Positions 5,674 through 59,932 of a stretch of 64,000 bases of DNA are shown here, piece after piece. The position numbers were made by a program, and so were the translations under genes. The DNA lies in NCBI GenBank assembly GCA_047946875.1, contig CP181398.1:271154-335153 (forward strand), read 5' to 3'. Source of the DNA: Candidatus Kerfeldbacteria bacterium (lineage in GTDB: Bacteria > Patescibacteriota > Patescibacteriia > UBA10025 > JAHIVO01). The first letter of the stretch is position 1. Each line of letters begins with the position of its first letter. A model generated the notes under the pieces. That model ran no database searches. It saw nothing but the letters and a program-made list of their open reading frames with translations, and was not told the DNA's origin.

Positions 5674-6925
5674 AAATTTTTATAATACCGTAAAAAAAAT
5701 TAAACTGATTTCACGTAATTTTTCTATTATTAGTACCGGTAAAAAGAATAAGATATTGGTTGATTTAGCAAAAGAGATTAACAAAAATAAAAAAATTATT
5801 CTAAAGGCGAATACAAAAGATCTAGCAAAATTTTCTGCCAAACATCCTTTATATGACCGTTTACTATTAACTGAAGAGAGAATAGAAGGAATAGTTGCAA
5901 GCATCAAATCAGTTGTGAAATTAACAGATCCTATTGGTCAAGTATTAGATAAAAGAGTATTAAAAAATAAAATTAAAGTATCACGAGTTCGGGTTCCTTT
6001 TGGAGTAATTGGTGTAATTTATGAATCTCGTCCTAACGTTACTATAGAAGTTGCTAGTCTTTGCATTAAGACTGGAAATACAGTAATACTTCGTGGTGGA
6101 AGTGATGCTGCAAATACAAACGAAGTGCTTGTTAAACTGATTCAAAAAACATTAGTAAAAAATAAATTATCAAAAGATATTGTTTATCTTGCATCATCAA
6201 AAGATAGGTCTGCCGTGAGTGATATGATGGCGATGGATGATTTGATTGATGTAATTATCCCGCGTGGAGGAAAAGGGTTGATAAATTTTGTTAGAGAGAA
6301 TTCTTTAGTACCTGTGATAGAGACAGGTGCCGGAGTTTGTCACACTTACGTAGAGTCCACAGCTGATATTAATAGAGCAGTGGAAATTATTTTTAATGCT
6401 AAGACGCAACGACCTTCTGTTTGCAATGCACTTGATACAGTTGTTGTAGATAAGAAAATACTTAATAAATTATTACCCAAATTAGCTAAACGATTACAAG
6501 ACAAAAAAGTAGTCATAAAAGCAGATGCTCAGAGTTTTGCTATCCTTCAAAAATATTACTCTAAAAATTTATTAAAAAGATCTACTAGCAAGGATTATGG
6601 TAAAGAGTTTATGAGTTTAACTATGGCCATTAAAACAGTTAAGGATTTTAATGAAGCGTTGAACTTTGTTCAAGCAAATACTTCTGGTCATTCTGAAGCA
6701 ATACTAAGTAAAAATAAGAAATATATAGAAACGTTTTTAGGTATAGTAGATGCAGCTGCTGTTTATGCTAATACTTCGACGCGTTATACAGATGGTTTCG
6801 AATTTGGTTTAGGTGCTGAGATAGGAATTAGTACACAGAAATTACACGCAAGAGGTCCTATGGGACTTGAAGCATTAACGTCATACAAATGGGTAATAGT
6901 TGGGCAAGGACAAGTTAGACCTTAG
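5666..6925 (+). CDS. proA: Gamma-glutamyl phosphate reductase
   Basis: ESRPNVTIEVASLCIKTGNTVILRGGS and the catalytic-Cys context RPSVCNALDTV. Confidence 0.9.
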   Translation: MNKNFYNTVKKIKLISRNFSIISTGKKNKILVDLAKEINKNKKIILKANTKDLAKFSAKHPLYDRLLLTEERIEGIVASIKSVVKLTDPIGQVLDKRVLKNKIKVSRVRVPFGVIGVIYESRPNVTIEVASLCIKTGNTVILRGGSDAANTNEVLVKLIQKTLVKNKLSKDIVYLASSKDRSAVSDMMAMDDLIDVIIPRGGKGLINFVRENSLVPVIETGAGVCHTYVESTADINRAVEIIFNAKTQRPSVCNALDTVVVDKKILNKLLPKLAKRLQDKKVVIKADAQSFAILQKYYSKNLLKRSTSKDYGKEFMSLTMAIKTVKDFNEALNFVQANTSGHSEAILSKNKKYIETFLGIVDAAAVYANTSTRYTDGFEFGLGAEIGISTQKLHARGPMGLEALTSYKWVIVGQGQVRP

Positions 6926-7088: not shown

Positions 7089-8447
7089 ATGACGGAGAAA
7101 TTTAAAACTCCTGATCCAACCATGCCCACTTCCGCAGACGTAGTTGTTATCGGAGGCGGTACTATTGGTGCTCTGGTTACTTTACAATTGCAGGAAGCGG
7201 GCTTGAAGACAGTCTGTGTGGAAGCGCACAGTACTAATTTTGGCAGTTCTAGTCGTTCAGCTGCCGCAGCTCGTCAACAGTTTGGTATGGAAGCCAATAT
7301 TACGATGCAACTCTATTCTGTGGATTTTTTCGCAAATTGGAAAAAAACTTTAGGTGGCACAACGCCACCAATGCATCAAGTTGGCTATCATTTCATGTTC
7401 GACAACAATTTTACAGACAATGGCAGTACTCGGGTTGACTCTAAGGCTGTCGTAGCTGCGAAACTCAAACGAGTTGAAAAGCAACGAGCTCTCGGACTCA
7501 ATGATGTAGAATTATTGATGCCGGATGAAGTAGCCGAACGTTTTCCCTACGTTGATACTTCTGAGTTGGCCTGCTCAACTTTTTGCCAGACAGATGGATA
7601 TTGTTATCCTAATGTCATCACCAATGATGGTTTCGATCGAGCCAAATCTTTAGGAGCAACTTTGCTTCAAAATACTTTGGTTTCAGGATTTAAAACTGAC
7701 AGTAATGGTAACATTACGGCAGTTGTAACCAACAAAGGTGAGATACCTTGTCAGTATGTAGTTAATGCTGCTGGTGTCTGGGCATCACGAGTTGGTGATA
7801 TGGTAGGTACAGAATTACCAATCAGTCCAGTACGACGCTATCTGTATTTTATGGGTCCTAATCTTGGTCAACTTGATTATGATTCATTTGCTAAGAAGAA
7901 TAATCTGCCTATGCCTATGTCAGATATGCCCTTCACGGTCACTCCTAATGGTGCTTACTGTCGTGCTGATGGTAAACAATTCATGCTCGGTTGGGACCGT
8001 CGTCCATCGGAAGATGTAATATATGATTTACCTAGTTTGGTAGATCATGACGCTTCTATTCAAGCACAGGATATCATTCAAGATGGTTTTAGAACCAATG
8101 ATGATCCGAGCTATGCTGAAGAGATGTGTATGGAAGTATCTGAACGACTTCCGTTCGTATTGGATCATTGTGGCTTTGCTTCTGCCACTTCCGGTTTCTA
8201 TGGAATTACGGCTGATCATAGTCCAATTATCAGTTTTGATTCTAATGCTAAGAATTTGATTCATTGCACCGGTTTTTCTGGTCATGGAATCATGCAAGGT
8301 CCAGCGGCTGGTAAGTTAGTGATAGATCTTATCACTGGTAATACTAGTCCTATTGTTGATCCTTTTGTTTATAGCTTAGGTGGTCTTTTGAGTCATCTTA
8401 ATGGTGATACAAAAAATGCTCGTCCGGCTGAGCACATGGTTATCTAA
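7089..8447 (+). CDS. FAD-dependent oxidoreductase, DAO family (sarcosine-oxidase-beta / proline-dehydrogenase-beta-like)
   Basis: VVVIGGGTIG dinucleotide motif. About 47% GC against a roughly 30% background. SD GGAGG upstream. Confidence 0.75.
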   Translation: MTEKFKTPDPTMPTSADVVVIGGGTIGALVTLQLQEAGLKTVCVEAHSTNFGSSSRSAAAARQQFGMEANITMQLYSVDFFANWKKTLGGTTPPMHQVGYHFMFDNNFTDNGSTRVDSKAVVAAKLKRVEKQRALGLNDVELLMPDEVAERFPYVDTSELACSTFCQTDGYCYPNVITNDGFDRAKSLGATLLQNTLVSGFKTDSNGNITAVVTNKGEIPCQYVVNAAGVWASRVGDMVGTELPISPVRRYLYFMGPNLGQLDYDSFAKKNNLPMPMSDMPFTVTPNGAYCRADGKQFMLGWDRRPSEDVIYDLPSLVDHDASIQAQDIIQDGFRTNDDPSYAEEMCMEVSERLPFVLDHCGFASATSGFYGITADHSPIISFDSNAKNLIHCTGFSGHGIMQGPAAGKLVIDLITGNTSPIVDPFVYSLGGLLSHLNGDTKNARPAEHMVI

Positions 8448-45410: not shown

Positions 45411-45896
45411 ATACCTAAGTGAACTGGATGATTACCCTTTTGCATTATTTTGTACAGGGGAGGAAAGTCCGAACACCTCTTCGTGTAATAGCGAAGGATA
45501 AAGATAGTCGTTAACGGCGACCGAGTAGGATAATTTTTAAGAGAGCAATTGCCTTTTAAAGGTTATAATGCCTAGGGAAAGTGTCACAGAGACAATACCG
45601 CCTACCTTCGTTCACCTGTGGTGAACTACGGCAGGCAGGCCTAAAAGTAGGCTTGCCCAACGAAGCTCGCTAAAGGCGAGCGTAGGTGGGTAAGGGTGAA
45701 AAGAGTGGTGTAAGAGACCACAAGTAGGTTAGGTGACTAACCAGCGTGAAAAACCCTATCTGGTGCAAGATCAAGTAGGTCTATCGTAAGATAGGCGGGT
45801 TGATTGCTGGAGCTTAATAGTAATATTAAGCCAAGATAGATGATCATCGTCCCGCTTGCGGGATACAGAATTCGGCTTATAGGTTTGCTTAGGTAT
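45411..45896 (+). ncRNA. rnpB: RNase P RNA (bacterial type A, long)
   Basis: GGAGGAAAGTCCGAAC (P4), AGGGAAAGTGTCACAG and ACAGAATTCGGCTTATAG conserved blocks. P1 pairing ATACCTAAG/CTTAGGTAT. About 486 nt. Confidence 0.8.
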
Positions 45897-51382: not shown

Positions 51383-53752
51383 TTGAAAAAAAATATGGAT
51401 TTTGCTGATAAAAAAGCGCACTTAAAATTTAATAAAAGATCAAAAAATGGACATAGACAAAGCGGTCCTAATTTTGGTATACCACATGCTAATATAATTG
51501 ATTTGAAGAAGATTCATAATGAAAAGAAAGAAAAGGAAAAACAGATAATTAAAGATAATGAAAATATTATAACTAAAATTAGTAATATTAAATGGCCCAA
51601 GTTAAGTATCCCAAAAAAGATTCATCACAAAACAGCCTTGGAAAAAATACTGGTATCAAAAATTAATCAAGATGCACCAACTGAGATAAGTATAAATAAA
51701 AAAAAGGAGAATCAGAAAACAGCAAAACAAATTCCAACTAAACCAGATATTAATCAAATTAAATTAGACGTTAAACAGTTCTCACTATCCTCTGGTTGGT
51801 ATAAGCGTTTAGCTGTGTTTTCTTTAGTTTCACTAGCAATAATTGCACCAATATACTTAATGAATTTTTACGAAAATGCTAAGCAGACGCAAGGTCAAGT
51901 CTTGGGAATATCTTCAGAAGCATATGATTTTTTGAAAGAAGCGGGGTCTTTTGCTACATCTTCAGAATTCAGTGAGGCAGGAGAATCATTTGGTAAAGCT
52001 GCTGAAAGTTTTATAGAGGCGCAAGATCAATTAGAATCAGCTGGAGGAGTGGTATTGTCAATCGCAAATATAGTACCTAATAAGGCTAAAAGTGCAGAAT
52101 ATCTTTTATCAGCTGGGGCGCATATGAGTAAGGCAGGAGTTCTTGTTTCTGAGATTATACCTGAATTAGAAAATTTTGATGTTAATCCATTAGATAATAA
52201 GCAAGTTACGACACTAACTGATTTTTTATTTTTTATTAAAACAGAGTTACAACCAGTACAGACTGAGTTAGAATTAGCTATTAGTGATATTGATAATGTA
52301 AGAACTAAAGATTTGCCTGATGAGTATCAAGAAAGTATGGCACTAGTAAAAAATTCTTTACCAGCTTTGGAAAATGGTTTTGATAGGATATTTTCAGTTG
52401 CAGATGTATTACTAGTTATATTGGGGCATGAAGCTCCACAAAGATATTTACTTACTTTCCAAAATAATAGAGAATTACGACCGACTGGTGGGTTTATAGG
52501 ATCTATTGCTCTGATGGATATTTATAAAGGCAATATAGAAAATTTGGAAGTTCCTGGTGGCGGTGTTTATGATATTGCTGGACAATTAAATGAAAAAATT
52601 ATATCACCTAAACCTCTTTGGCTAGTAAATCCACATTGGAATATTCAAGATAGTAACTGGTTTGCTGATTTTCCAACTTCAGCAGAAAAAATAATTTGGT
52701 TTTATGAAAGAGCTGGCCGTACAACTGTAGATGGTGTGATGAGTATGACCCCTGAGGTGATATTAGATCTATTGAAGATTACAGGGCCTATCGTAATGGA
52801 TGATTATGGATTAACTATCGATCATAGTAATTTTATTAGAGAAACACAGTACCAAGCAGAGATTGCTTATGATAAAGAAGAAAATCAACCAAAAAAGATA
52901 ATTGGCGATATGTTACCAAAATTGTTTGATAAAATATTTTTAGTAGAATCTACTGACTTTTTGAAGATAGTTGATGTGTTCAATAAATCATTAGGAAACA
53001 AAGATATTTTATTTTATTTTACAGATGAAAACTTGGAGAATAAAATTAATGAACTTTCATGGGGAGGTAAGATTATAGATACAAATAAAGATTATTTGAT
53101 GGTAGTTAGTTCTAATATTGCTGGAGGTAAAACTGATCACGTTGTTGATCAACTAGTTTCTCACGAAGTAAATATCCAATCAGATGGATCAATGATTAAT
53201 ACAGTAAAAATTTCAAGGACACATCAAGGTAACAGTTTAGATATATGGGAAGGGGAAGACAATGTATCATACTTACGAATTTATGTACCTAAGGGAAGTG
53301 AGTTAGTGTCTATAGAGGGTTATGATAATATACCAAGTTTTAGATATTTATTACCAGATCAAGATGCAACAACAGATGATTTCTTATCCAACATTGAACG
53401 AAATTCAATTATTGACGAATCGACAGGCACAAGAATAACTACAGAATTTAATAAGACGGTTTTTGGTAATTGGATAAGTATTTCTCCTGGAGAAACACAG
53501 GAGTTAATAATCTCATACAAATTACCATTTAATCTGGATTTTGGTGGATTATTTGATAAAACAGATTCCTATAGATTGTATGTACAAAAACAACCAGGTT
53601 TAATAAATAATTTCTTTACTACCAAGGTTAATTGGTCTGATGATATTAGCTTGATTTGGAATCAGGCTGGGTTTACGATTGATGAACATTCAGCTGAATA
53701 TGTAACAGATCTTGATAGTGATAAAATATTAGGGGTGATAATTAAGAAGTAA
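51383..53752 (+). CDS. Large membrane-anchored protein (possibly DUF4012-like)
   Basis: 789-aa ORF with a basic N-terminus and one TM helix near residue 140. The domain guess is from memory only. Confidence 0.35.
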   Translation: MKKNMDFADKKAHLKFNKRSKNGHRQSGPNFGIPHANIIDLKKIHNEKKEKEKQIIKDNENIITKISNIKWPKLSIPKKIHHKTALEKILVSKINQDAPTEISINKKKENQKTAKQIPTKPDINQIKLDVKQFSLSSGWYKRLAVFSLVSLAIIAPIYLMNFYENAKQTQGQVLGISSEAYDFLKEAGSFATSSEFSEAGESFGKAAESFIEAQDQLESAGGVVLSIANIVPNKAKSAEYLLSAGAHMSKAGVLVSEIIPELENFDVNPLDNKQVTTLTDFLFFIKTELQPVQTELELAISDIDNVRTKDLPDEYQESMALVKNSLPALENGFDRIFSVADVLLVILGHEAPQRYLLTFQNNRELRPTGGFIGSIALMDIYKGNIENLEVPGGGVYDIAGQLNEKIISPKPLWLVNPHWNIQDSNWFADFPTSAEKIIWFYERAGRTTVDGVMSMTPEVILDLLKITGPIVMDDYGLTIDHSNFIRETQYQAEIAYDKEENQPKKIIGDMLPKLFDKIFLVESTDFLKIVDVFNKSLGNKDILFYFTDENLENKINELSWGGKIIDTNKDYLMVVSSNIAGGKTDHVVDQLVSHEVNIQSDGSMINTVKISRTHQGNSLDIWEGEDNVSYLRIYVPKGSELVSIEGYDNIPSFRYLLPDQDATTDDFLSNIERNSIIDESTGTRITTEFNKTVFGNWISISPGETQELIISYKLPFNLDFGGLFDKTDSYRLYVQKQPGLINNFFTTKVNWSDDISLIWNQAGFTIDEHSAEYVTDLDSDKILGVIIKK

Positions 53753-53843
53753 AATGTAGTATATTTATTGGGGTTAATTTAATATGAGTAATAATTTTTT
53801 AGCTAATTTTAGCTAATTTTTTTATTATTGTGGATATTACCCC

Positions 53844-53872
53844 TTGACAGGGAATAGTAGTAGGTATATGAT
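53844..53872 (+). promoter_or_regulatory. Near-consensus sigma70 promoter
   Basis: TTGACA-17 nt-TATGAT. Confidence 0.45.
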
Positions 53873-54028
53873 TATAAGTTATATTGTTTTTTACAACTAA
53901 ATATGTAAATAACTCTTTGAGGAGAGAGTTATCAATTAAGCATTATAATAGTGCTTATGATATAAACTATTTGAATTGAATTCTATTTATTAACAATAGA
54001 ACCAATAACTAAATTAATGTAATCAAAT

Positions 54029-54067
54029 GGCGAACTCTCCTAAAAGAAAGTTCGCTTCTTGTTTTTT
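54029..54067 (+). terminator. Rho-independent terminator
   Basis: GGCGAACT...AGTTCGC followed by TTCTTGTTTTTT. Confidence 0.55.
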
Positions 54068-54218
54068 AGGGAATGAAAAGGGGGGCTAGAAAAATGATAT
54101 CAATATGGATTAGTTTTTCTCTCGGTGTAAACTGAGAATTCACTAATCTTGGTATCTGGTGTATGCGTCAAACTTACGTGCGACTAAGCTATACCACTAG
54201 CAACCTTCTCATTCTTTG
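54068..54218 (+). repeat. Repeat family A, copy 1 (variant closing helix)
   Basis: Near-identical to copies 2-4 across about 140 nt. Ends TAGGGAATGA / TCATTCTTTG. Confidence 0.8.
54094..54135 (+). CDS. Leader uORF MISIWISFSLGVN (copy 1)
   Basis: AAAAGGGGGG SD 8 nt upstream of ATG. Conserved across 4 repeat copies. Confidence 0.35.
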   Translation: MISIWISFSLGVN

Positions 54219-54229
54219 AAAAAAAATTT

Positions 54230-54327
54230 CGAGTGGGTATAAGGTCACCTATTAGCATTCTCACGGATGAGGTGTTACCGTCTTAAATAATATAGGCGTT
54301 GGGGTGTGCAGATCCCCCTTCCACTCG
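54230..54327 (+). other. Structured 98-nt element (7-bp closing helix CGAGTGG/CCACTCG with internal hairpins)
   Basis: Long-range perfect complementarity plus GGGGtgtgcagatCCCC and CACCT...AGGTG hairpins. Lies between repeat A1 and cargo gene 1. Confidence 0.3.
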
Positions 54328-54372
54328 ACAAAATTATTCGTTAAAAAACGAGTATTGCTATTAGCAATTTGT

Positions 54373-54407
54373 GGGCGAGGTTACGGAAGCTTCGCCACCT
54401 TTTTCCA
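54373..54407 (+). terminator. Hairpin followed by T-run
   Basis: GGGCGAGG...CTTCGCC then CCTTTTTCC. Confidence 0.4.
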
Positions 54408-54479
54408 GCGGGCATCTGCTATTGTGGATGTTTGCTGAAAAAAGGGATAAAAAAGTACAAAAGGCAAAAGGAGAGCAGT

Positions 54480-54725
54480 ATGTCTGGCATATTTCTTAAA
54501 AACGTATTTGATCGCATAACAGCTTTAATGAGTAAGGCGATCGTATACAACTTCTCAGCAGATCAAAATCAACGTGATATAAGCGATCGTATAGGTACTC
54601 TAAACGATCAAATCATCAAATATGATAGTGATCTCAGCTGGGGGAATATTGAGAAGTCTGAATCTACTGAAGCAGATTTTCTTAAAGAGTTCGAAGAAAT
54701 TGAAGCAATTATTGTTACTTTCTAA
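54480..54725 (+). CDS. Cargo gene 1: small acidic protein (81 aa; start moved to ATG 54480)
   Basis: AAGGAGAG SD 6 nt upstream. The track ORF starts further upstream at 54369 with no RBS. Confidence 0.45.
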   Translation: MSGIFLKNVFDRITALMSKAIVYNFSADQNQRDISDRIGTLNDQIIKYDSDLSWGNIEKSESTEADFLKEFEEIEAIIVTF

Positions 54726-54808
54726 ATTCTTTTCCTGGGGAATGGATTTAATTCATTCCCCACACATTTCTAGAGAATCAAGTAATTGGTTAACTGGAAA
54801 TATGCTAA

Positions 54809-54999
54809 AGTTCTTTACATCAATATTTCACAGTTAGAAAAGGGGGGCTAGAAAAATGATATCAATATGGATTAGTTTTTCTCTCGGTGCAAACTGAGAA
54901 TTCACTAATCTTGGTATCTGGTGTATGCGTCAAACTTACGTGCGACTAAGCTATACCACCCGCCCAAGGCGGATAAACTAGCAATCTTCTCTAACTGTG
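54809..54999 (+). repeat. Repeat family A, copy 2 (19-nt hairpin insertion)
   Basis: CACAGTTAGA...TCTAACTGTG closing inverted repeat. Insertion CCGCCCAAGGCGG at 54959-54977. Confidence 0.8.
54856..54897 (+). CDS. Leader uORF MISIWISFSLGAN (copy 2)
   Basis: Same SD and spacing as copy 1. Confidence 0.35.
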   Translation: MISIWISFSLGAN

Positions 55000-55030
55000 A
55001 AAATATTGCTATAAGTTTTAAAAATGGAGG

Positions 55031-55273
55031 ATGAAGATGAATTCCATATGGGAAGTAGTAAAAGGCTTCATTAGTTCAATAATAGTACCTTACATTGGTA
55101 TTTGGACAATTGAAGGGACTCTGGAAGGTACAATATGTATTTATAAGTTACCGATTTATATGGTAACTGGAACTGGAGTTTGTATACTAATTCTCTTCAT
55201 TTGTTTCATAATTCATGTTGTTATTGAAGAGATTTGTGAGAAAATTAACAATAAACTTCATCAGTCCATATAG
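55031..55273 (+). CDS. Cargo gene 2: small two-TM membrane protein (start possibly 55037)
   Basis: GGAGG SD. ATG at 55037 has better spacing. Confidence 0.45.
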   Translation: MKMNSIWEVVKGFISSIIVPYIGIWTIEGTLEGTICIYKLPIYMVTGTGVCILILFICFIIHVVIEEICEKINNKLHQSI

Positions 55274-55294
55274 CAGATGTTAAATGTTCTTTAC

Positions 55295-55328
55295 GGAGAA
55301 AGCCTAAAAAACTTTCTCCACTTTTTCC
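55295..55328 (+). terminator. Rho-independent terminator
   Basis: GGAGAAAG-cctaaaaaa-CTTTCTCC followed by ACTTTTTCC. Confidence 0.5.
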
Positions 55329-55375
55329 AAGAAATAATGCAAATTGTTTGCTGAAAAAAGGGAATGTTCTTTATA

Positions 55376-55536
55376 TCAATATTTCATGGTTAGAAAAGGG
55401 GGGCTAGAAAAATGATATCAATATGGATTAGTTTTTCTCTCGGTGCAAACTGAGAATTCACTAATCTTGGTATCTGGTGTATGCGTCAAACTTACGTGCG
55501 ACTAAGCTATACCACTAGCAACCTTCTCTAACTGTG
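55376..55536 (+). repeat. Repeat family A, copy 3
   Basis: CATGGTTAGA...TCTAACTGTG. One extra C at 55441 frameshifts the uORF tail. Confidence 0.8.
55411..55464 (+). CDS. Leader uORF MISIWISFSLRCKLRIH (copy 3, frameshifted C-terminus)
   Basis: Same SD and start. A 1-nt insertion changes the last residues. Confidence 0.3.
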
Positions 55537-55574
55537 AAAAAACAATAAACATCATATAAACCTGGAGTAATGAA

Positions 55575-55955
55575 ATGATTACTGATCACGTAGAGTGGGC
55601 TCGTAAGCTGACGGAAGAGATGACTCGTGAACTCGAGGAATTACTTGCCCGTCACGGCTATCGGTTTATCGAAAGGGAAGATCTTGTTCCAGGCAGAAGG
55701 TTTCAAATGGTTGAAATATGGCCATTTGTACCGATAGAAAACCCTCGGTTCGTAGGCACTCAGGTAATGATCGATGATCCTGGTATTCGTACTTGTGATC
55801 ACCCTGATCTTCCGGATGAGTATGTATATTATCATTCGGTGGGATGGAAGAGACAGTGCTTCGTTCCGTTGGAAATGTTTCTTAATCGGCAAGCCGGACC
55901 GCATGACAATAGACAATACGCCTACGTTGTCCCAAATTTCGGAGGTTGTATGTGA
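55575..55955 (+). CDS. Cargo gene 3: hypothetical protein, about 47% GC (foreign composition)
   Basis: Compositional outlier. Its last 14 nt are part of repeat B. Confidence 0.5.
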   Translation: MITDHVEWARKLTEEMTRELEELLARHGYRFIEREDLVPGRRFQMVEIWPFVPIENPRFVGTQVMIDDPGIRTCDHPDLPDEYVYYHSVGWKRQCFVPLEMFLNRQAGPHDNRQYAYVVPNFGGCM

Positions 55956-56092
55956 CATTTATTCCAAAGTCCCAGAACCAAAACTGGTAGGATAGTTACC
56001 TGAAACAGAATAACTCGGGAAGAGATCTTTTCTTCCCGTACTTTTCCAGAATATCATGAGAGTGGTGTTTTGAAAAAGTGATTGAACATTAC
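55942..56092 (+). repeat. Repeat family B, copy 1
   Basis: About 150 nt, roughly 90% identical to copy 2. Contains perfect hairpin CGGGAAGA-gatctt-TCTTCCCG (56016-56038). Confidence 0.75.
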
Positions 56093-56112
56093 ATATAAAG
56101 AAGGGAATAATA

Positions 56113-56259
56113 ATGAATATTACTATAATATCATTAGCGCTTCTGGCAATAGTCTGTGGATGTAGATTGTATTTTTCTAAAAACGGAAAAATTCAGTTTT
56201 TAGCAGCAATCGAAGGGATAGCAATAATTATCGTAATAGTTACCACACAGATTAATTAG
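56113..56259 (+). CDS. Cargo gene 4: 48-aa small membrane protein
   Basis: AAGGGAAT SD-like sequence upstream. Two hydrophobic segments. Not in the ORF track because it is under 60 aa. Confidence 0.4.
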   Translation: MNITIISLALLAIVCGCRLYFSKNGKIQFLAAIEGIAIIIVIVTTQIN

Positions 56260-56334
56260 TCAGAGTATTATTGTTCCATAGGAAGGAAGTACAAAAATGG
56301 ATAAGATTCAAATTGAATTGGAAATTATCTAAAT

Positions 56335-56368
56335 GGGCGAGGTATTGAGAATTTCGCCCCTTTTTTTC
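56335..56368 (+). terminator. Rho-independent terminator
   Basis: GGGCGAGG...TTTCGCCCC followed by TTTTTTT. Confidence 0.55.
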
Positions 56369-56410
56369 AGCGGGCATTTGCTATTGTGAATGTTTGCTGA
56401 AAAAAAGGAA

Positions 56411-56582
56411 AGTTCTTTACATCAATATTTCACAGTTAGAAAAGGGGGGCTAGAAAAATGATATCAATATGGATTAGTTTTTCTCTCGGTGCAAACTGAG
56501 AATTCACTAATCTTGGTATCTGGTGTATGCGTCAAACTTACGTGCGACTAAGCTATACCACTAGCAACCTTCTCTAACTGTG
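56411..56582 (+). repeat. Repeat family A, copy 4
   Basis: CACAGTTAGA...TCTAACTGTG. Confidence 0.8.
56458..56499 (+). CDS. Leader uORF MISIWISFSLGAN (copy 4)
   Basis: Same SD and spacing. Confidence 0.35.
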   Translation: MISIWISFSLGAN

Positions 56583-56608
56583 AAATAAAATATAGAATAA
56601 GGAGAATT

Positions 56609-57127
56609 GTGATGAAACTTACACATTTCATTAACTGCAAATTCGATTGGTATTACCGCCTGACATTATGTCTCTTGGTATATTTCTTTACCAATTCATA
56701 TTACGTAAGTGGTCAAATCACTTATTGGAACAGTATTGGTGCGTTTATAACTGGATCGTTACTTATCAATATCATTTATGTGTTGATAACAATGATTGCA
56801 GTATATCCTTTGCACTTATTGTATTTGTTCGTTGCATCTAAGATTGCAGTCAAGAAAAAAAGACCAAAAAAAGATGAATATTGTGTCAGTTGTAGGTATT
56901 TATCGGTAACAACATTCATCGTTGTATTAACTTATGCAACTTATAAGTTTACGATTGGTGAAGCTGTTTTATGGGAAGCTGTTGTTGGGGGATTGTTGGG
57001 TGCTATCGTTGTGAATTTGATGATCCGGTTTATAGGTTGTCTAACTTTTTGGCCACTACATTCATTTTTCAATTTTGTATGGTACAAATTGTTCAAAAGA
57101 AATGTCGTACAAGCATCCACATGTTAG
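56609..57127 (+). CDS. Cargo gene 5: four-TM membrane protein
   Basis: AAGGAGAA SD. GTG/ATG start. Confidence 0.5.
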   Translation: MMKLTHFINCKFDWYYRLTLCLLVYFFTNSYYVSGQITYWNSIGAFITGSLLINIIYVLITMIAVYPLHLLYLFVASKIAVKKKRPKKDEYCVSCRYLSVTTFIVVLTYATYKFTIGEAVLWEAVVGGLLGAIVVNLMIRFIGCLTFWPLHSFFNFVWYKLFKRNVVQASTC

Positions 57128-57189
57128 TATTTTTTCACAAGTGAGATTAGACCTAGTGTCTTGATCTTGAAAAGTTCCTCTTTATTCTA

Positions 57190-57340
57190 GAGGTTATATG
57201 TGACATTTGTCCCAAGGTTCCAGAACCTATAACTGGTAGGGTAGTTACCTGAAACAGAATAACTCGGGAAGAGATCTTTTCTTCCCGTACTTTTCCAGAA
57301 TATCATGAGAGTGGTATTTTGAAAAAGTGATTGAACATTA
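57190..57340 (+). repeat. Repeat family B, copy 2
   Basis: Near-identical to copy 1, including the CGGGAAGA...TCTTCCCG hairpin. Confidence 0.75.
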
Positions 57341-57365
57341 TAACTAAATATAGATCGGAGAAAAT

Positions 57366-57521
57366 ATGTACGAATATGTAGGTATTGCAATTGGTATCAT
57401 GTTACTTGCTTATGTTGCCTATAAATATTTGGTTGCATCTGTAGTATCATGGTTTGTCTGTATGGCAATCGATAAACTGTTTGAAACCCATAATATAAGT
57501 ATGGGAAGAATAGGAAGGTAA
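57366..57521 (+). CDS. Cargo gene 6: 51-aa small membrane protein
   Basis: GGAG SD upstream. Hydrophobic core. Stop overlaps the next gene's start region. Confidence 0.4.
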   Translation: MYEYVGIAIGIMLLAYVAYKYLVASVVSWFVCMAIDKLFETHNISMGRIGR

Positions 57522-57522
57522 A

Positions 57523-57762
57523 ATGTACTATCGTCATGATGAAAGAATGATGAAAATGAATATGGCTTTAGTCTTAGTCCTAGTGCCAATTCTATTCGTA
57601 GTCACTTTCGGAATTTCTGCATTAGGATGGGGTAGCCTCGACTCTTTTATGAGAGGTTTTATGGGTTATACCACTCTTATATTTGGAGGTGTATGGTTGG
57701 CTGTCCTTGAAGGAGAAACAAAAGATTTCCGATCCAGGGTCAAGGCAATGATATGGTCATAA
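57523..57762 (+). CDS. Cargo gene 7: 79-aa two-TM membrane protein
   Basis: GGAAGG SD. Translationally coupled to gene 6. Confidence 0.45.
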   Translation: MYYRHDERMMKMNMALVLVLVPILFVVTFGISALGWGSLDSFMRGFMGYTTLIFGGVWLAVLEGETKDFRSRVKAMIWS

Positions 57763-58303
57763 ATTGACCAAGACTATAATTATATTGGGGCAGCTCTGTA
57801 TTAATACAATACATCTGCCCATTCTTTTCCAGAACATCTAGTTCCTTCTCCCATCCAGGCTCAGGATATTGTCCAAAGGACTCAGGTGTTATGAAAAAGG
57901 GGGGTGAATATTTAAACTAAAATATATATAATTAGTTTATCCTCACAATTTTTAAAATGCATGTTTGACAATTTATTATATTAAGCGTATTTTTTAACTG
58001 CTAATCAATTATTAGTTGATTGGCACAAGAAAGCTGTCGGTTATGAAATGCTGGAGATCTAACTTATTAAGTAGAAAAATCTCTCTCCTCATGTTCTAAT
58101 TTAATTATTAGAATATTTCTACTCAAAAGTTGGTATAATCCTTCAACTCATGTCGACAGCTTTTTTGATACATAGGATTTGATTCTTAGCTACATTCAGG
58201 ACACTATTATTAGTATTAGTATTTTGCGACACCTTATTGTATTTTTATCATTTTAATCATCGGTGTTGATTTATATGCTATTTTTTGTTATAATTTTTTT
58301 ATT

Positions 58304-59932
58304 ATGATGTTTAGAATTTGGCGCAAACTTACCACCACCTTAGCCGGTGGTGCGATTATTATAGCCACAGCTTCTGTTACCAGTCGTCTACTTGGTTTGA
58401 TCAGAGATAGGTTATTAGCAAATAAATTTGGTGCTGGTGATACCTTAGATATTTATTATGCTGCATTTAGAATACCTGATTTAGTATTTAACGTTTTAGT
58501 TTTGGGTGCATTATCGGCGGCTTTTATTCCAATATTTGTTGAATATTTACAAAAAGCTAAAGAAGATCCAAGTAAAAAGAACGAAGTTTGGCATCTAGCT
58601 AATTCACTATTAAATATATTATTAGCTGGTTTATTGGTTTTTGGTTTTCTTCTATTTATCTTTGCACCGCAGATTGTTCCATTGATTGCGCCTGGTTTTG
58701 ATCTGGATAAACAAGCTATTGTAGTGAACATGACCAGGATTATGTTAATATCAATTATATTTTTTGGTATTAGTAATGTTATTACAGGCATGTTGAATTC
58801 TATGAAAAAATATGCCAACTTTGCTTTAGCGCCAGTAATGTATAATATTGGAATTATAATTGGAATTATTTATTTAACGCCGATTTATGGTATTTACGGT
58901 TTAGCTTATGGTGTAGTACTTGGTTCATTTTTACATTTAGTTATTCAAATACCTGGAGCGCTAAAAATTGGATATAGGTATCAACCGATTTTTGATTATA
59001 CGCACAAAGGAGTTAGAGCTATTGGTAAATTAATGTTACCAAGGACTTTTGGACTTGCTGTTACGCAAATAGATCAATTGGTTAGTGTGATAATTGGTTC
59101 AACTTTAGCTACTGGTTCGGTGGCTGTTTTTACTTTAGCCAATAATCTTCAGAATTTTCCAATTGGCGTTTTTGGAGTATCGATGGCTGTAGCATCATTC
59201 CCATTTTTTAGTGAAGCGTTTGCTCAAAAAAATGTAGAATTATTTGTTTTACATTTTTCAAAAAGTTTTCGTAGGATACTATTTCTAGTCATTCCTATTT
59301 CAGTTTTAATATTTTTACTTAGAGCTCAGTTGGTGCGTGTTATTCTTGGTTCAGGAAATTTTGATTGGCAAGATACATATTATACAGCCCAAACTCTTGG
59401 GTTTTTTGCATTGTCATTATTTGCTCAGAGTACTATCCCGCTTTTAGCTAGATCATTCTACGCTTGGCAGGATACTAAAACCCCGGTAAAAATTGCCATT
59501 GTTACTGTGATTGTAAATATTTTCGGAGCATTAGTTTTAAGTAATTATTTAGGAGTAATTGGGTTGGCAATTGCATTCTCAATTTCTAGCGTTGTTCAAA
59601 TGATATTATTATATATATTTTTAAGAAAAAAAATGGGTAATCTTGATGATAAAACTTTGGTTATTTCGTTGAGTAAAATAGTATTAATAACTGCAATGAT
59701 GGGGGCCGTTGTTCATGCTTCAAAATATGTTCTAGCACTTGGAGTAAATATGGACACTTTTTTAGGAATATTTATTCAAGGTGTAGGAGCAGGTATTATT
59801 GGTATCGTTTTTTATCTAATACTAGCCTTTATGTTTAGATGTGACGAAATAACAATTATTACTAAACTGTTCATTAAAGCAAAAAATCAACTATTTAATG
59901 GTAAGAATAAAGAAAATATAAATGCAGAATAA
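58304..59932 (+). CDS. murJ: Lipid II flippase MurJ
   Basis: Full-length MurJ/MviN similarity, about 14 TM helices. Confidence 0.85.
   Translation: MMFRIWRKLTTTLAGGAIIIATASVTSRLLGLIRDRLLANKFGAGDTLDIYYAAFRIPDLVFNVLVLGALSAAFIPIFVEYLQKAKEDPSKKNEVWHLANSLLNILLAGLLVFGFLLFIFAPQIVPLIAPGFDLDKQAIVVNMTRIMLISIIFFGISNVITGMLNSMKKYANFALAPVMYNIGIIIGIIYLTPIYGIYGLAYGVVLGSFLHLVIQIPGALKIGYRYQPIFDYTHKGVRAIGKLMLPRTFGLAVTQIDQLVSVIIGSTLATGSVAVFTLANNLQNFPIGVFGVSMAVASFPFFSEAFAQKNVELFVLHFSKSFRRILFLVIPISVLIFLLRAQLVRVILGSGNFDWQDTYYTAQTLGFFALSLFAQSTIPLLARSFYAWQDTKTPVKIAIVTVIVNIFGALVLSNYLGVIGLAIAFSISSVVQMILLYIFLRKKMGNLDDKTLVISLSKIVLITAMMGAVVHASKYVLALGVNMDTFLGIFIQGVGAGIIGIVFYLILAFMFRCDEITIITKLFIKAKNQLFNGKNKENINAE

Follow-up and report, generated by a model that had tools for sequence, protein, structure and literature searches.

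Repeat A, a structured RNA family outside Rfam 15 that recurs among small membrane-protein cassettes in an envelope locus of Kerfeldbacteria-like Patescibacteria

In some translational riboswitches and thermosensors, a strand of the closing helix P1 doubles as an anti-Shine-Dalgarno (anti-SD) sequence, as in the add adenine riboswitch, and clusters for cell-envelope or surface glycans are the setting of EAR and ops/JUMPStart. Folded elements between gene cassettes may also belong to the DNA level, such as the attC sites of integrons, whose consensus is RYYYAAC...GTTRRRY. Very few non-coding RNAs specific to the Candidate Phyla Radiation (CPR)/Patescibacteria have been described so far; these bacteria cannot be grown alone, and their surface biology is thought to govern host attachment. 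The subject of this analysis is Repeat A, an element found in a stretch of 64,000 nucleotides (the window; positions 271,154 to 335,153 of contig CP181398.1) from a Candidatus Kerfeldbacteria bacterium, where four direct repeat copies lie within positions 54027-56588. Repeat A is a folded RNA of approximately 150 nt encoded on the + strand, and it represents a new structured RNA family that is not in Rfam 15 (4227 models). We hold, with moderate confidence, that it is an independently folding, conserved RNA whose most likely role is that of a cis-acting 5' leader of the messenger RNA (mRNA) of each gene cassette.

The four copies occupy positions 54064-54221 (copy 1), 54826-55002 (copy 2), 55382-55539 (copy 3) and 56428-56585 (copy 4) of the + strand and score 167, 154, 168 and 169 bits, respectively, with a covariance model trained on ten copies of the family. 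Their cores are 99-100% identical in pairwise comparison: approximately 125 nt are the same throughout, save for a single C/U exchange (copy 1) and an insertion of 19 nt (copy 2, 54959-54977). The former lies in a loop and turns GCAA into GUAA, both of the GNRA type; the latter holds an extra hairpin already noticed in an earlier, sequence-only reading of this DNA, CCGCCcaaGGCGG (CCGCC-CAA-GGCGG, 54960-54972), which is located between helix P4 and the 3' strand of helix P2 and occurs in copy 2 only. In the flanking 9-13 nt on each side, copy 1 differs from copies 2-4 and complementarity is kept, and the shared repeat reaches approximately 40 nt past the left arm. The folding energy of each window copy is -54 to -63 kcal/mol (z of about -6 against shuffled sequence).

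Relatives of the element were reached by synteny, through MurJ-related loci and then through the contigs of MurJ homologs; BLASTN between the islands gives faint similarity, and the diverged counterparts were recognised by reading the islands themselves. The order DUF4012 gene, island, murJ, lepA is common to the MurJ-related loci of other Patescibacteria metagenome-assembled genomes, and the syntenic loci of six related genomes (L022, L023, L024, L037, L039 and L041, all Kerfeldbacteria-like Patescibacteria) contain 11 further copies of Repeat A, which are called a-type when they stand first in the island and b-type when they are gene-proximal. Core identity is 35-66% between genomes and 46-52% between a and b copies that share one of the other genomes; L024b has an additional hairpin of its own, closed by a GCAA loop and placed at a junction other than the one used in copy 2. 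When run on loci L021-L034, the ten-copy model matched those ten copies and no others, and five held-out copies (from L037, L039 and L041) were matched with E = 5e-21 to 1.5e-7 and have the same fold. The more distant loci L025-L034 and L044 gave no copy with the model; in two of them (L026 and L027) the gap at the island position is only 0.5-0.7 kb. Exact-word scans with core 18-22-mers found nothing in viral or genome contigs and just 19 chance matches of 18-26 nt in metagenome contigs, and BLASTN against phage records gave nothing for the repeat; word searches were fruitless because the relatives are too diverged. So far, members of the family have been found only in one clade of Kerfeldbacteria-like Patescibacteria.

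All 15 copies adopt one common architecture in minimum free energy folds of the single sequences. From the outside inwards, P1 (approximately 19 bp, interrupted by a single mismatch) is separated from P2 (5 bp) by a short internal loop of purines, and P2 opens into a three-way junction from which P3 and P4 arise. P3 has three stems, of which the base and middle ones are divided by a 5' bulge of 3-5 nt and the middle and apical ones by an internal loop; in P4, a base stem supports an apical stem that varies, with an A-rich bulge on the 3' side. In copy 4, the strands of P1 are UUUCACAGUUAGAAAAGG (56428-56445), whose inner GAAAAGG followed by GGG is a conserved Shine-Dalgarno-like (SD-like) purine tract, and CCUUCUCUAACUGUGAAA (56568-56585), whose inner CCUUCUC is a conserved anti-SD-like tract; in P2, GCUAG (56449-56453) faces CUAGC (56561-56565). 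P3 (56460-56520) has the base GAUAUCA/UGGUAUC, the 5' bulge, the middle stem GGAUUAGU/ACUAAUCU and the apical stem UCUCGGU-GCAA-ACUGAGA (56484-56501), and P4 (56521-56560) has the base GGUGUA(U)GC/GCUAUACC, its variable apical stem and a 3' bulge that reads UAA here and AAA in most relatives. The invariant features are inner P1, the GGU...ACU motif of the P3 apical stem, in which the G·U and the adjacent G-C are the same in 15 of 15 copies, and the P4 bulge. The loop that closes P3 is GNRA or UNCG in eight of the 11 distinct versions.

These folds revise the inner helices that had been proposed earlier. The hairpin GATTAGT/ACTAATC is real, corresponds to the middle stem of P3 and covaries in the relatives. 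The pairings GGTAT...ATACC and CTTA...TAAG give way to other partners supported by the family, since GATATCA pairs with UGGUAUC in the P3 base, GGUGUA(U)GC has its partner in the P4 base, and the UAA of 'CTAAG' aligns with the conserved unpaired A-rich bulge. As for the closing helix, described as 15 bp with one mismatch, the helix exists and the length was underestimated, as it extends outward to 18-19 bp (UUUC...GAAA). Its arms in copy 1, TAGGGAATGAAAAGG (54067-54081) and CCTTCTCATTCTTTG (54204-54218), and the 3' arm of copy 4, CCTTCTCTAACTGTG, which ends at 56582, were found as quoted. Between copy 1 and copies 2 and 4 both arms are altered and pairing is kept: three pairs are G·U or U·G, three outer pairs are fully compensated (U-A, U-A, A-U to A-U, A-U, U-A), and the A·C mismatch is retained. 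A random 3' arm would pair with copy 1 at every one of the nine outer positions with a probability of approximately 5e-4. The statement that copies 2-4 begin alike fails for copy 3, which reads CATGGTTAG and not CACAGTTAG (CAUGG where CACAG is expected) and thereby has two more G·U pairs; copy 2 adds one further G·U through UCUU for CCUU in its inner 3' arm.

The central proposal of the sequence-only reading, that a closing helix maintained by compensatory and G·U changes denotes RNA structure, holds in the 11 copies of the six other genomes, where pairing is preserved in P1 and in every inner helix. A MAFFT-only alignment evaluated with RNAalifold shows compensatory change at 17 of 28 pairs. 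Structure-guided manual alignments, with N as gap filler, were made of 10 and of 15 sequences; paired cells amount to 96.0% and 95.4% (slid controls, 40-43% and 38-43%), and double-sided change affects 42 and 52 of 69 pairs, respectively, with 0 of 500 shuffles in either case, counts that lean towards the structure because the alignments were fitted to it. This is a point against our reading, for which the independent single-sequence folds and the five held-out copies serve as safeguards. Covarying pairs are present in all seven helices, and compensatory substitutions beyond controls are seen across diverged homologs, as is generally asked of a conserved structured RNA.

The strand can also be assigned. 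Among the non-Watson-Crick cells of the 15-sequence alignment there are 106 G·U against 24 A·C, and ten of the latter come from a single conserved position of P1, where L024a has G-C and L022b, L037b, L039b and L041b have A-U. In 15 of 15 copies the + strand folds better than its reverse complement (by 4-30 kcal/mol), and the score obtained with the covariance model is 169 bits for the + strand and 26 bits for the reverse strand. It is because G·U outnumbers A·C and all copies fold better as the + strand that Repeat A is considered an RNA. The earlier assertion that G·U pairs work for RNA but not for DNA led to the right call and was overstated: G·T is tolerated in single-stranded DNA hairpins, and the wobble argument alone is thus not decisive. 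The case becomes strong when the wobble bias is combined with gene co-orientation (all copies are oriented as the genes), the position in a presumed 5' untranslated region (UTR) and the RNA-type tetraloops.

That Repeat A is instead a DNA-level element, either a miniature transposon with terminal inverted repeats or an attC-type site that folds as single-stranded DNA, is scarcely credible. It does form units of approximately 150 bp with 15-20-bp inverted termini between gene cassettes, the cassette content varies among strains and the window cores are nearly identical. However, syntenic copies in seven genomes, at 35-66% identity, have compensatory change in every helix and a strong bias of G·U over A·C, the repeat extends some 40 nt beyond the left arm, the one strain deletion breaks in a different repeat, and neither integrase nor transposase occurs among the island ORFs (open reading frames) or in the gene tables of related loci. 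Particular mobile elements were tried and rejected. For a miniature inverted-repeat transposon, the repeat continues past the left arm, no duplication is found at the flanks, copies are syntenic in seven genomes and the arm changes favour G·U on one strand. The arms of an attC site would follow the consensus quoted above, and those of Repeat A (GTTAG...CTAAC) have the opposite order, with a conserved core and varying arms, the reverse of attC; Pfam annotations of the flanking genes in the related loci contain no integrase. Finally, a retron msr/msd was discarded, with no reverse transcriptase among the island ORFs or in any related-locus gene table.

The identity of the window cores has its own explanation. 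The outer P1 arms of copy 1 resemble those of a-type copies of relatives. Their identity is 77% with the arms of L022a and likewise with those of L023b, and 62-65% with the arms of copies 2-4. Six compensated changes in each arm beside a single change in 125 nt are beyond what neutral divergence can produce, and therefore gene conversion is called for; a recent conversion, bounded by the conserved inner P1 tracts, explains the near-identical cores. The cores would have been homogenised in this process, and the older outer arms of P1 would have stayed different yet compensated. It is this conversion of the core that makes covariation visible inside a single genome, and the window offers a clean example of concerted evolution in which older compensated arms are preserved.

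The strains also vary in copy number. A metagenome contig from another sample (L001, 1-1589, compared with window positions 56100-57348) is without a 48-amino-acid (aa) ORF, copy 4 and a 171-aa ORF, and the breakpoints of this deletion are inside a 118-nt direct repeat (D2, 55982-56099 / 57231-57348), not in Repeat A. Another assembly (L021) breaks off inside copy 4.

No described family accounts for the element. At the gathering threshold, Rfam 15 gave RNase P and one tRNA only in the whole window, and at E up to 5-10, where the search covered 53700-58400 and the islands of L022 and L023, it gave chance matches of microRNA or snoRNA type, none of them on the elements discussed here; in the literature on structured RNA of Patescibacteria or Kerfeldbacteria nothing relevant was found. 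The RNase P RNA (bacterial class A, 45416-45895) is a 480-nt match versus a 367-position model, and the gene therefore probably carries insertions.

A different function was suggested by a 13-codon upstream open reading frame (uORF) that, together with a good SD-like tract, is present in four of four window copies (in copy 4, 56458-56499). Its product is MISIWISFSLGAN in copies 2-4 and ends ...LGVN in copy 1, and its layout is AAGGGGGG, 8-9 nt, AUG and 13 codons. The proposal would be a leader-peptide attenuator, in which a ribosome translating the uORF would refold the RNA and in this way regulate the gene behind it. The strong tract 8-9 nt before the AUG, the stop codon within the apical P3 stem and an AUG at the same spot in L039a and L041a (in a frame of six codons) speak for it. 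However, the AUG triplet is AAC, AAG or ACA in L022a, L023a and L024a, an AUG is located elsewhere in L023b and L022b, frames in the relatives that have an AUG span 6-13 codons with unrelated peptides, and there are neither runs of regulatory codons nor a downstream terminator. An ending '...LGAN*' is common to two frames because the hairpin sequence is conserved. The uORF/Shine-Dalgarno framing of the sequence-only reading thus does not survive, the start codon being absent or displaced in L022a, L023a, L023b and L024a; since start and frame are unconserved in homologs, the leader-peptide reading fails and this attenuator was rejected as very improbable. What is conserved across copies is the purine tract (G..A.GG.GG) and likewise its pyrimidine partner, that is, an SD-like/anti-SD-like helix and not a leader peptide.

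The setting of the copies gives the best indication of their role. The repeats are located within a 4.5-kb island between a DUF4012 gene (51383-53752) and murJ (58304-59932), in an envelope locus that reads two GT4 genes, DUF4012 gene, island, murJ and lepA. Each genome has one to four copies in this hypervariable island, which is made up of cassettes of ORFan genes, mostly for small multi-pass membrane proteins, with no Pfam domains. In the window, the ATG of a 78-aa membrane ORF (55037-55273) lies 34 nt past the end of copy 2, that of a 126-aa ORF (55575-55955) 35 nt past copy 3, and that of a 171-aa membrane ORF (56612-57127) 26 nt past copy 4. Among full gene-proximal copies, eight of nine end 23-38 nt before an SD-bearing start codon, and no intrinsic terminator was found between these copies and the next ORF. 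The genes that follow in L022, L037, L039 and L041 encode weakly homologous membrane proteins of approximately 150 aa (blastp 3e-5, 4e-4). Copies are therefore placed where riboswitches are expected: co-oriented with an ORF, close to it and in a presumed 5' UTR. Given that most copies, window copies 2-4 included, come directly after the terminator and hairpin module of the previous cassette and 23-38 nt before the next start codon, a 5' leader is the likeliest role, and the element would be 5'-terminal and would act in cis on the translation or stability of the cassette mRNA.

Promoter-like hexamers (TTGCTG/TTGCTA, N17-19, TTACAT/TATAAT) occur just upstream of the copies. The context that precedes copies 3 and 4, taken at 56335-56427 for the latter, comprises a terminator (56335-56359), a hairpin CCUUUUUUUCAGC...GCUGAAAAAAAGG (56359-56408) and the predicted hexamers TTGCTG (56394-56399) and TTACAT (56417-56422) with a 17-nt spacer. 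TTACAT or TACATT follows at 16-17 nt in window copies 3 and 4, L022b and L024b, and a reduced element in L043 has TATAAT at 18-19 nt. From these sites we infer that transcription may start near the 5' end of P1.

After most cassettes, and in every related island, a module recurs in which a terminator hairpin rich in G+C is followed by a U-tract, and this U-tract forms a second hairpin with an A-tract further downstream (CUUUUUCCAGCG, approximately N20, UGCUGAAAAAGG), the 3' arm of which resembles a -35 box; in the window it is found at 54372-54447, 55295-55362, 56016-56099, 56334-56409, 57265-57348 and 57790-57850. The G+C content of the island (53750-58300) is 0.34-0.38 versus 0.29-0.31 in the flanks, and its gene content differs in every related genome. 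A word-index homology search with the 126-aa and 171-aa cassette proteins returned self matches only, and looking up the 81-aa and 48-aa ORFs returned no record.

The a-type copies have another environment. They follow a conserved promoter-plus-terminator unit, and what separates them from the next ORF is a second structured element in the window, L022 and L023 and a terminator-like hairpin in L024, L039 and L041; L037 has no a-type copy, and its sole copy precedes the last island gene. A conceivable but unlikely explanation is that Repeat A is a stand-alone small RNA, with its own promoter or released from a longer transcript, that acts in trans or binds or sequesters a protein, P1 doing no more than bring its two ends together, as happens in 6S, Y or SRP RNAs. 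The position of P1 agrees with it, as this helix closes the conserved region end to end and conservation does not continue beyond its base; so do the a-type copies that stand between two terminator-like hairpins in L024, L039 and L041 and the other apparent small-RNA units in the island. The gene-proximal copies, in contrast, have no terminator after them and the ORF begins 23-38 nt on, and no recognisable strong promoter precedes the copies, though the clade consensus (TTGACA, N17, TATATGAT) is clear at other island sites.

Returning to the cis-acting 5' leader, a mechanism may be sought in inner P1, where an SD-like tract of the GGAGG type would pair with an anti-SD-like tract (CCUCC/CCUUCUC). 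Inner P1 is conserved in sequence and not just in pairing, and this points to a possible involvement in ribosome binding or to another strand with which it may pair. Several observations weigh against the leader reading and the mechanism just outlined. A simple switch, in which the anti-SD-like 3' strand of P1 would mask the true SD as long as P1 is open, is not borne out: folding of nine copies together with the ribosome binding site (RBS) showed it in copy 4 only. The a-type copies, window copy 1 included, are cut off from the next ORF and could be stand-alone RNAs. The 5' ends and promoters are guesses, with promoter-like hexamers that are weak in most copies, and the junction nucleotides are unconserved, unlike what is usually seen where a junction forms a ligand pocket. 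In addition, the closest relative (L043, MurJ 78%) retains P1 with a small internal hairpin only. This reduced element (L043 1838-1944) keeps P1 as ACAGAAAUGGAGG / CCCCCAGAUCUGU and has one small hairpin in place of P3 and P4; a 96-aa ORF is located 50 nt downstream, and TTGCTA, N18-19, TATAAT is found upstream.

The search for an expression platform showed no terminator after the gene-proximal copies, an SD alternative in one of nine, and a terminator-like hairpin after the a-type copies of L024, L039 and L041. Besides a ligand, binding of a protein or of the ribosome, or the packing of helices, would also be compatible with the invariant features. It may be proposed, tentatively and as a doubtful extension, that Repeat A is the aptamer of a new CPR/Patescibacteria-specific class of regulatory RNA that would sense a metabolite, an ion, a protein or the ribosome, or would reprogram RNA polymerase, and would turn on the envelope cassettes alongside two complementary units that flank the island. 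A more modest idea, to which we give a low probability, is that of a processing or stability module, in which nothing is sensed and P1 would either offer an RNase III-type cleavage site or protect the 5' end, so as to insulate the cassette mRNAs. It would account for a P1 of 18-19 bp with one internal mismatch, for the location at cassette boundaries, for the L043 mini-variant that retains P1 only and for the lack of a consistent switch upon folding. It would not account for P3 and P4, which are conserved over 35-66% sequence divergence, nor for an invariant G·U/G-C motif and an A-rich bulge that exceed the needs of a cleavage site or a 5' cap hairpin.

Another way of looking at the island is to consider its terminators. 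There are ten terminator-like sites versus 2.5 expected, co-oriented with the genes; each island gene has its own intrinsic terminator, and the one canonical strong promoter is at the island head. This arrangement brings to mind processive antitermination of the kind known from Bacillus EAR and phage HK022 put, in which the nascent RNA would modify the polymerase so that it reads through the island terminators. The excess of terminators behind a single strong promoter, the first copy right after the leader of that promoter with more copies along the island, and the location in a cell-envelope glycan cluster are all in its favour. It is nevertheless improbable: the Rfam models of EAR (epsC) and of other families gave no match, the first copy is downstream of the first terminator, the genome without a first-position copy (L037) has its only copy before the last island gene, and later copies are preceded by promoter-like sequences.

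The island contains further structured units. Its strong promoter (TTGACA, N17, TATGAT) heads a unit of approximately 190 nt (53843-54066) with a conserved hairpin ACUCUUUGAGGAGAGAGU (~53913-53930), an intrinsic terminator (54030-54066) and no Rfam match; it is found at the island head in L022, L023, L024, L039 and L041 and three times in L037, and a small RNA and an attenuating leader are both conceivable. At the other end, a second promoter TTGACA at 57965 is followed by an RNA (~57965-58170) closed by AAAGCUGUCGG.../...CGACAGCUUUUUU, also with no Rfam match, which every relative retains ahead of murJ, even L043 and the distant L027 (MurJ 49%). This RNA exposes AAAAUCUCUCUCCUCA (~58076-58091), the complement of which is found 4.2 kb upstream in the GAGGAGAGAG box, so that two complementary small-RNA-like units, with GAGGAGAGAG and CUCUCUCCUC as candidate pairing boxes, flank the island. 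Directly after copy 1 there is an element E2 (54229-54333) closed by UUCGAGUGG/CCACUCGA; counterparts with other sequence and a similar closing helix are present after the first-position copies of L022 (~7621-7733) and L023 (~6445-6590), and E2 is absent from L024, L039 and L041.

With respect to the cassette proteins, the 126-aa ORF that follows copy 3 is a real gene of a small uncharacterised family, for which a HMMER scan gave 19 remote homologs with the motif REDLVPG...VYYHC..W.GQCFVP. The mean confidence of its AlphaFold models (predicted local distance difference test, pLDDT) was 40 for the single sequence and 88 with the 19 remote homologs, and the model predicts an N-terminal helix and a small beta-barrel. 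Pfam and PHROG gave no match for the family, and Foldseek against the PDB gave nothing below E = 0.5. A homolog in L044 is found among WecG, GT4 and MreB genes, another cell-envelope setting.

Taken together, these observations describe an RNA fold tied to hypervariable genes for small membrane proteins in an envelope-biosynthesis locus. The alignment and covariance model can now be used to search metagenomes and metatranscriptomes, and if Repeat A were a sensor or an antiterminator it would show how reduced genomes regulate their variable surface genes.

The comparison with known systems can be summarised as follows. Attenuators of the trp or ermC type have in common with the window copies a short ORF and its SD inside helices that look mutually exclusive, but in Repeat A the ORF is unconserved in homologs and no terminator or SD-sequestering hairpin follows. 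The intercistronic RNase III sites of phage T7 and 5' stabiliser stem-loops are likewise long helices repeated at cistron boundaries, and Repeat A differs from both in having a conserved three-way junction with invariant motifs inside the helix. EAR of the Bacillales and put of HK022 are, like Repeat A, structured RNAs of terminator-rich clusters for surface polysaccharide or envelope, and Repeat A would share with them an action on its own transcript; no similarity of sequence or structure was detected, and here the first copy follows the first terminator. In riboswitches such as add, with an anti-SD strand in P1, the likeness resides in the SD-like and anti-SD-like inner P1 and in a real SD some tens of nt downstream, whereas the expected alternative pairing was found in copy 4 only when nine copies were folded. 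Lastly, from the orphan riboswitch candidates and other motifs listed as 'Cis-reg' in Rfam, Repeat A differs in its unconserved junction, in the lack of a recurrent expression platform, in its restriction to one CPR clade and in that the genes it is predicted to control are ORFan membrane proteins, for which reason no ligand can be guessed; it is like them in its compact multi-helix fold with abundant covariation and a P1 that closes the domain, and also in its location on the gene strand, immediately upstream of coding regions, with several copies before different genes.

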